Shown: positions 32,810 through 33,152 of the stretch, piece by piece
Layout of the letters: every line of letters starts with the position of its first letter
Position numbering within the stretch: position 1 is the first letter of the stretch
IMG/VR virus record: IMGVR_UViG_2534681997_000004
Span: 1 to 41,177 of that record
Length of the DNA stretch: 41,177 nucleotides
From: a virus
Taxonomy: Duplodnaviria; Heunggongvirae; Uroviricota; Caudoviricetes
Direction: 5' to 3' (one strand)
Program-made: the position numbers and the translations under genes
The notes under the pieces: model-generated
Database searches by the model: none
Told to the model about the DNA's origin: nothing
What the model saw: the letters and a program-made list of their open reading frames with translations, nothing else

Positions 32810-32840
32810 TCACTGTCGTCATTTCGTTAAGGAAGAAGTT

Positions 32841-33089
32841 ATGAATGAAAAAGTTTTTGGAGCAAAAGCCATTTAGACTCCAAAGGTTTTTGCGCTTGTT
32901 TACCTGGTAATTGGCATTTACCTCGTTTTTTCTGTTGTCTCAATGAATTTCACGGCGATTACGATATCGGTGGTAAGTGCATTGCTTTTACGTGTGCTTT
33001 ATGAGTTCCTAATGAACTCATTCAAGGCGACTGAGCATCTTTACAGGATCGCCGAATCTCTTGACCGTAATGGATCCAGCGATAAATAG
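32841..33089 (+). pseudogene. Small membrane-protein ORF interrupted by an in-frame TAG (possible pseudogene or two tiny ORFs)
   Basis: AGGAAG RBS before ATG 32841; in-frame TAG at 32874; the frame then continues through a hydrophobic stretch (KVFALVYLVIGIYLVFSVVS) to a stop at 33087..33089. Confidence 0.3.
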
Positions 33090-33113
33090 ATAAGTCATTT
33101 CAGTGCATATGTA

Positions 33114-33140
33114 AACCGCCGACATGGCGGTTTTTTTATT
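33114..33140 (+). terminator. Intrinsic terminator inside the tail operon
   Basis: CCGCC-gacat-GGCGG stem-loop followed by TTTTTTTATTT. Confidence 0.55.
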
Positions 33141-33152
33141 TCCGGAGGCGTG

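Follow-up and report, generated by a model that had tools for sequence, protein, structure and literature searches.

Between the tape measure gene and the next tail gene of a lambdoid prophage, a small hydrophobic reading frame is broken by an in-frame amber codon and followed by a strong hairpin; hence the question of whether this frame is a gene, what the interruption means, and how the baseplate genes behind the hairpin are expressed. The window, i.e. the whole stretch of 41,177 nucleotides that was analysed, encodes an integrase, RecT, exonuclease VIII, an O-like replication protein and RusA, together with a LydA-type holin, a lysozyme, an Rz-like spanin, and a lambda-type terminase and portal. 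The tail is Mu-like and contractile, with sheath, tube, chaperone, tape measure, DNA_circ_N/hub, gp44-, gp45- and gp46-like proteins and baseplate J. The initial annotation of the locus offered a decaying moron, stop-codon readthrough or two tiny ORFs, and assumed a terminator inserted with the frame and overridden by late antitermination; the moron and the antitermination are retained here, and the readthrough, the two ORFs and the inserted terminator are given up. The joint reading, to which a probability of about 0.75 is assigned, is that the locus carries a recent amber null allele of an accessory gene from a DUF4282 branch, that the terminator is ancestral and is read through by means of Q, and that the intact protein would act against incoming phage tails.

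The features are collected in Table 1. The tape measure gene ends at TGA 32807–32809. Behind a good Shine–Dalgarno (SD) sequence, the small gene starts at ATG 32841–43, runs for 11 sense codons (MNEKVFGAKAI), meets the in-frame TAG at 32874–76, and stays open across the hydrophobic stretch up to TAG 33087–89, so that direct reading reproduces the ribosome binding site, the start, the interruption and the continuation that had been described. With a TAG at codon 12, translation from this start should end after 11 residues. The GC content is 38–40% over 32700–33100, compared with 47–56% to either side; the low value of the small gene is in part what a hydrophobic protein would give. The AT-richness of the supposed 340-bp insert is therefore real, but its extent is not, as the insert covers only about 32810–33090 and the terminator lies outside it. 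The terminator itself is found where it had been placed, just 5' of the downstream ribosome binding site. The start of the downstream gene is ATG 33153 in the RefSeq annotation of identical copies, and GTG 33150 is the start of the longest ORF.

Table 1. Coordinates of the features at and around the interrupted gene, with the evidence for each.
Feature	Position	Strand	Evidence
Tape measure protein gene, 619 aa, lytic transglycosylase-like region	30950..32809	+	phrog_2276 E = 3e-156; CDS in identical E. coli copies
Sigma-70-like site ATGATA-17-TATAAT, candidate small-gene promoter inside the tape measure 3' end	32739..32767	+	10/12 match
Shine–Dalgarno AAGGAAG of the small gene	32829..32835	+	Direct reading of the window sequence
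Amber-interrupted gene, 82-aa predicted two-helix membrane protein, phrog_12129 / DUF4282-like	32841..33089	+	Profile, same-slot orthologues, AF2
Codon 12 TAG, from TGG (Trp)	32874..32876	+	TGG in L009–L012, L023; TAT in NCTC9040, L024–26
T5 run, T6 in the Enterobacter P0006 lineage	32887..32891	+	Relatives compared
Residual 48-aa ORF from internal Met35: second helix and C-terminal tail, no SD	32943..33089	+	Gene callers: P0011
Intrinsic terminator (predicted), ancestral to the junction	33113..33141	+	Pattern scan, fold, relatives
DNA_circ_N / baseplate hub gene, Mu gp43/N-like, SD GGAGG 33144–33148	33153..34556	+	PF07157 E = 2.8e-30; phrog_184
Q-family late antiterminator gene	14526..15215	+	PF06323 E = 5.8e-87
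Strong terminator just 3' of Q and of promoter-like sites 15164–15227	15278..15305	+	PR'/tR'-like layout
8-bp direct repeat GTCATTTC either side of the small ORF	32818..32825 and 33094..33101	+	Within chance expectation

The interrupted frame is not a chance open frame, since its match to phrog_12129 covers both sides of the TAG (E = 6.5e-11, residues 6–77 on profile positions 2–77 of 79, computed on the 82-aa product with a sense residue at codon 12). Against PF14110 (DUF4282), the protein scores 20.8 bits, where the gathering cutoff is 27; 19 of the 20 members of the wider family alignment match this model, with a best E-value of 9.7e-12. Sixteen relatives from Enterobacter, Escherichia, Citrobacter and metagenomes were recovered by a word-indexed protein search, and the family is rare, with only 24 clusters in an exhaustive profile search of 1.84 billion representatives. 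T13, P14, R51, E55, F61, L67 and I70 are invariant in the family, and K15, Y21, K62, E65 and R69 nearly so. The resulting motif TPK...R..E...F...L..I is invariant, and its broader form TPK...R..E...FK..E.L.RI is common to the family and DUF4282. The AF2 model, built from the family alignment, is a helical hairpin with helices at residues 3–34 and 37–76 (pLDDT 81), and the hydropathy profile is what two membrane spans with a polar C-terminal tail behind them would give. Between family members whose synonymous divergence is unsaturated, dN/dS ranges from 0.09 to 0.23, and by this sequence comparison purifying selection acts on the downstream frame across the family. Judged from profile, motif and model, the frame is a real gene of phrog_12129, a divergent branch of DUF4282, with an inner-membrane helical hairpin as its predicted product.

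Other searches gave little. The BFVD fold search returned generic helical hairpins only, all at E > 0.2; PADLOC and NCBIfam gave nothing meaningful, a nucleotide search of the phage collection gave no match, and a literature search for DUF4282 or PF14110 found no papers. A type I toxin–antitoxin system was considered and rejected, as there is no RNA partner and both size and topology are atypical; for a type I toxin or its RNA family, there is no Rfam match near threshold and no PADLOC or NCBIfam match, and permissive Rfam E-values gave sub-threshold matches on the terminator only.

The relatives show what codon 12 encodes when the gene is intact. It is TGG in the closest intact lineage, P0001 (L009–L012, L023), and Trp is also found in P0002–5, P0007, P0009, P0013 and P0014. 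The Citrobacter relative P0012 has CTA (Leu), and E. coli NCTC9040 (annotated as WP_023157309.1) and the three viral contigs L024–26 have TAT (Tyr). Among the complete E. coli genomes that carry the element, 21 of 22 have TAG and one has TAT; the IMG/VR relatives comprise 19 with TAG, one with TAG and an extra T, three with TAT and one with TGG (n = 24). The TAG is dominant in one shallow clade, to which it is confined, and is not conserved across the homologues. Because relatives with the same slot have Trp (TGG), the window most plausibly holds a TGG>TAG null allele produced by a single G>A change, i.e. a nonsense mutation of a Trp codon. The comparison of syntenic relatives recommended in the initial annotation thus finds a sense codon in same-position homologues (TGG in most, otherwise TAT or CTA) and a conserved downstream frame under purifying selection, which supports the decaying moron, or pseudogene. 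TAT lies one step from TAG and two from TGG, and the TAT copies have the N59/S79 haplotype of the TAG copies; for both reasons, they are most simply taken as pseudo-revertants.

The element is present twice in NCTC9040: in the first copy the tape measure is split into two CDSs, and the version of the small protein from the second (P0008) is doubly frameshifted. This suggests either indel errors of the assembly or a decaying duplicate.

The lesion is recent. Across the 22 loci with the TAG allele, the tape measure is mosaic in its 3' half, with a mean pairwise difference of 5.5% and a maximum of 17.7%, and hardly any variation is left from about 32756 through the ORF and the terminator into the first 1.5 kb of the next gene. 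Compared with the window, a locus has 0–1 changed sites in the ORF region and 1–8 in the 1.5 kb downstream, except for L005, which has 2 and 35, respectively, and is the source of most downstream variation. The baseplate gene that flanks the TAG-bearing ORF is equally invariant (0.1–0.5% divergence); hence, little time has passed, the lack of further decay is as expected, and the intactness of the remaining frame, which the recent lesion explains, is no argument for constraint. An ORF less variable than its neighbours among the TAG alleles, which would have pointed to constraint, was considered and dropped, as no signal is left once L005 is set apart. The window and the TGG allele differ at four positions, all non-synonymously (W12*, F27Y, T59N and P79S), which is compatible with relaxed constraint and is not significant.

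The mosaic segment of the tape measure extends over 31341–32755 in prophages that are nearly identical elsewhere, the protein being 619, 642 or 645 aa long, and the boundary to near-identity is sharp at about 32756, roughly 50 nt 5' of the tape measure stop codon. Position 32920 (codon 27) is tri-allelic among the TAG alleles: 16 have T (Phe), 5 have A (Tyr) and 1 has G (Cys). Tyr at codon 27 is also present in the Trp-12 relative P0005.

All homologues for which DNA was fetched occupy the same slot, 3' of the tape measure gene and directly 5' of the DNA_circ_N gene, and intact 82-aa orthologues are found there in relatives. Two lineages carry an additional ORF of 188–192 aa between the tape measure and the small membrane gene (L016 2366–2944, without a PHROG match, and L020 2375–2941, matching phrog_31333), which marks the junction as a hotspot for accessory genes. 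Conversely, the small ORF is absent from E. coli AW1.7, eight more E. coli genomes and the phages phiNP and BZS1, whose tails are otherwise syntenic; since the ORF-less relatives include isolated viable phages, the small gene is dispensable. By these comparisons, it is an accessory, non-essential gene in a variable slot, and both presence/absence polymorphism and deviant base composition, two traits of morons, are seen for it. The ORF-less junction of AW1.7 holds a single GTCATT, and the direct repeat GTCATTTC around the ORF could mark the end point of an insertion or deletion; as an insertion mark the repeat was discarded, 8 bp in 340 bp being no more than chance would give.

The hairpin consists of AAACCGCC-GACAT-GGCGGTTT, with stem arms at 33113–20 and 33126–33, followed by TTTTATTT up to 33141. 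It has a stem of 8–9 bp with 5 GC pairs and a T7 tract, is the best + strand match of the pattern scan over 30000–36000, and folds at −12.5 kcal/mol (z = −2.5). All ORF-bearing relatives, down to 51% protein identity, have a hairpin and a T-run a few bases 5' of the DNA_circ_N SD. The stems at this place differ (GATATCCCGCC/GGCGGGATAT, GAAGCCGCC/GGCGGCTT and AAACCGTCA/TGGCGGTTT, for example), with energies from −10.7 to −21.4 kcal/mol, as seen in L013, L016, L018, L020, L021, phiNP, BZS1 and GF-2. Among the ORF-less junctions, AW1.7 and the eight more E. coli genomes have the hairpin immediately 3' of the tape-measure stop codon, Citrobacter phage phiNP reads TGA-CCCGCC-AGCC-GGCGGG-T5, and Serratia phage BZS1 reads TAG-GCCCGC-TTCG-GCGGGT-T6. 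This conservation is based on individual folds and direct reading, since MAFFT mis-registered the stems and RNAalifold yielded no usable covariation count. As the hairpin is present at junctions without the ORF (AW1.7, phiNP and BZS1), it was not brought in by the ORF and is not part of the insert, contrary to what had been assumed; the comparison indicates that the predicted terminator belongs ancestrally to the junction between the tape measure and baseplate genes in this phage group.

The T-tract and the next SD lie too close together to leave space for a promoter, so expression of the baseplate genes needs readthrough of the terminator. The prophage is lambdoid and has a Q-family gene with promoter-like sites and a strong terminator behind it in a PR'/tR'-like layout, which would explain late readthrough and fits the earlier idea that late antitermination overrides the hairpin; readthrough of the junction terminator would then be Q-dependent. 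Another strong + strand terminator lies in the late region at 18095–18112. During lytic growth, Q-modified RNA polymerase would read through the junction, tR'-like and 18095 terminators, and in the repressed prophage the hairpin would stop transcription from the small gene and tape-measure region before it reaches the baseplate genes.

Several side features of the late region are also visible. A second terminator-like site near Q occupies 15386–15402. The gap between the lysis genes and the terminase (17760–18112) holds a second moron-like cassette, with a promoter-like site at 17760–17789 (10/12, TG), an ORF at 17818–18096 (phrog_17438) and a hairpin at 18095–18112. Behind the tail assembly chaperone ORF at 30530–30808 comes a 44-aa ORF (30823–30957) that uses a different frame, overlaps the tape-measure start by 8 nt and is called separately by gene callers in relatives; the two look like a G/GT-type frameshift pair.

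The cassette thus joins several traits: it is dispensable, polymorphic in presence and absence, and AT-rich, has a small membrane protein as its product and a terminator behind it, and lies in a lambdoid late operon. The most likely role of the intact protein, argued from this context, is exclusion: at the inner membrane, it would act against incoming phage tails and exclude superinfecting phages at genome entry. A membrane role against tails is favoured because the layout resembles the HK97 gp15 cassette and because DUF4282 genes are repeatedly placed next to those for tape measure, hub and spike. Distant DUF4282 genes directly follow four other tape-measure families (L047, L089, L093, L094, L097 and Edwardsiella phage GF-2), and others lie 5' of the central tail fibre gene J (L048) or between the baseplate hub and spike genes (L052 class); most of these distant genes then have a hairpin terminator. 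In the IMG/VR contigs L052–L083, a 79-aa DUF4282 gene and a terminator sit between hub-like and GpV-type spike genes, and the tail module is a different one, with Dit-like and Pam3 gp18-like genes.

A serious alternative, though one with less than an even chance, is that the intact gene is a late-operon gene acting in lytic growth, for example in the handling of the tape measure at the membrane or in late exclusion, with the terminator lowering transcription of the baseplate genes relative to those of sheath, tube and tape measure. It has to be weighed because an independent promoter is not established: the number of sites like the 10/12 candidate is not above that of shuffles in the region, an equivalent site was not found in the distant relatives L018, L021 and L013, and thus no conserved promoter was found. 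The GF-2 homologue, moreover, begins at the base right after the tape-measure stop codon, gaps in several other phages are just 8–38 nt, and the terminator is kept even without the small gene. What speaks against a lytic function is that the gene is dispensable, isolated viable phages being among the ORF-less relatives, that it is AT-rich relative to its neighbours and polymorphic in presence and absence, and that its layout is identical to that of the HK97 gp15 moron.

A different view of the TAG itself is that it is leaky or conditionally suppressed, giving trace amounts of full-length protein, and is kept since a membrane protein that may be toxic would be advantageous at a low dose. The TAG is indeed present in the majority of copies, mosaic tape-measure backgrounds diverged by up to 17.7% included, most TAG copies have no second disabling mutation, and a widespread TAG without further stops is also how a functional leaky stop is expected to look. 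The base after the TAG is A, and an A 3' of an amber codon is a comparatively suppression-friendly context. Nevertheless, no means of suppression came to light: the window has no tRNA gene, and the host check suggested earlier shows wild-type glnV and glnX with CTG anticodons in MLI104K1, whose element is 100% identical. A supF-type tyrT occurs in 0 of 5426 complete E. coli genomes, and a supE-type glnV in 155 of the 5426, of which the 15 listed are mostly laboratory K-12 derivatives; these checks cover glnV and glnX in one host and supE- and supF-type alleles collection-wide. No stable RNA structure surrounds the TAG (z = +0.6), the TAG is not conserved beyond its shallow clade, and the low diversity of the ORF is the same as that of its neighbours. 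Stop-codon readthrough, as once proposed, is therefore improbable, and a null allele is the preferred reading of the TAG. The supE-type glnV (CTA) gene is left unannotated by RefSeq in the E. coli genomes that carry it.

Still less probable is that the pieces function on their own, as an 11-aa peptide, a 48-aa fragment from Met35 (32943) or a 21-aa ORF in the +1 frame from ATG 32845. All three ORFs are present, the 48-aa product is called by gene callers on 16 contigs (P0011), and this fragment retains the most conserved segment, LRVLYEFLM.SFKATEHLYRIAE. However, ATG 32943 has no SD, neither helix 1 nor the invariant TPK motif is left in the fragment, and no family member is naturally so short, truncated calls aside; with an invariant family motif crossing the break, the two tiny ORFs of the initial annotation are unlikely to be separate genes. 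A programmed −1 frameshift on G-TTT-TTG (32886–32892), leading from the frame of ATG 32845, which skips the TAG, into the membrane-protein frame, is scarcely credible: an extra T in the same run of Enterobacter P0006 does hard-wire such a fusion (81-aa ORF, 19 contigs), but the heptamer is not a canonical X XXY YYZ, no stimulatory structure follows, and the fused product loses the invariant F-G-x-K-x-I-W-T-P-K N-terminus.

The P0006 lineage keeps the TAG and has T6 instead of T5 at 32887–91, so that the +1 frame from ATG 32845 runs into the membrane part. This T6 was considered as an independent repair of the frame and downgraded; because the fused product lacks the TPK motif, T6 is not counted as a repair, and it is as likely to be a second lesion as a repair.

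The stretch is thus best regarded as an ordinary, recently inactivated moron-type gene, to judge from its sequence, next to a conserved junction terminator. For annotation, it should be entered as a pseudogene of a DUF4282/phrog_12129 membrane protein and not as two small ORFs, and the hairpin as a conserved junction terminator of the phage group. For DUF4282, unrelated phages repeatedly place such a gene, usually with a terminator of its own, next to the genes for tape measure, hub or spike; this is the pattern that entry-blocking morons such as HK97 gp15 would be expected to show, and it provides a lead to the function, for which nature already supplies an allelic series (TGG, TAG and TAT). 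A wider and rather doubtful generalisation is that DUF4282-type two-helix proteins may be unrecognised, widespread phage factors that act on genome entry, for instance by superinfection exclusion, and are encoded beside the genes of penetrating tail parts (tape measure, hub, spike and J) so that specificity travels with its target; that the amber allele prevails in E. coli would then reflect selection for silencing a costly membrane protein or for its trace expression through a leaky UAG.

Among known systems, the lambda late operon shares with the window a Q-family gene, a promoter-like site and a strong terminator, further strong terminators being predicted inside the late region of the window at 18095 and 33113; the window, with its putative Q system, differs in its Mu-like contractile tail. 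Tab of Pseudomonas phage JBD26 is an 83-aa moron product directed against the tape measure protein of invading phages (PMC10884400). The likeness is that of a small prophage accessory protein in the late operon with a specificity tied to the tape measure protein; unlike the window gene, Tab is encoded between terminase genes and blocks tail assembly instead of entry, and its published account neither presents it as a membrane protein nor uses the word 'transmembrane' (PMC10884400). With DUF4282 and PHROG 12129, the window protein has in common a full-length PHROG match, the motifs and the two-helix topology, although it stays below the PF14110 gathering cutoff.

The closest parallel in layout is HK97 gp15, a protein of the inner membrane that excludes superinfecting phages with a specificity dependent on the tail of the incoming phage (PMC3594210). 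BLASTP of the window protein against gp15 gives no alignment at E <= 100, and there are several differences: gp15 has 62 aa and one hydrophobic segment as against 82 aa and two helices, it is encoded 5' instead of 3' of the tape measure gene, and the window has a terminator that pre-exists in ORF-less relatives and a gene that is disrupted by an amber codon. In HK97, gp15 comes first, then a terminator, and 13 nt further on the tape measure gene begins. Both gp15 (YebO-like) and the window gene are small inner-membrane genes, the latter by prediction, that lie between tail genes, adjoin the tape measure gene and have a strong SD; in both, a hairpin terminator ends about 12 nt 5' of the next tail gene, in a lambdoid phage with late antitermination.
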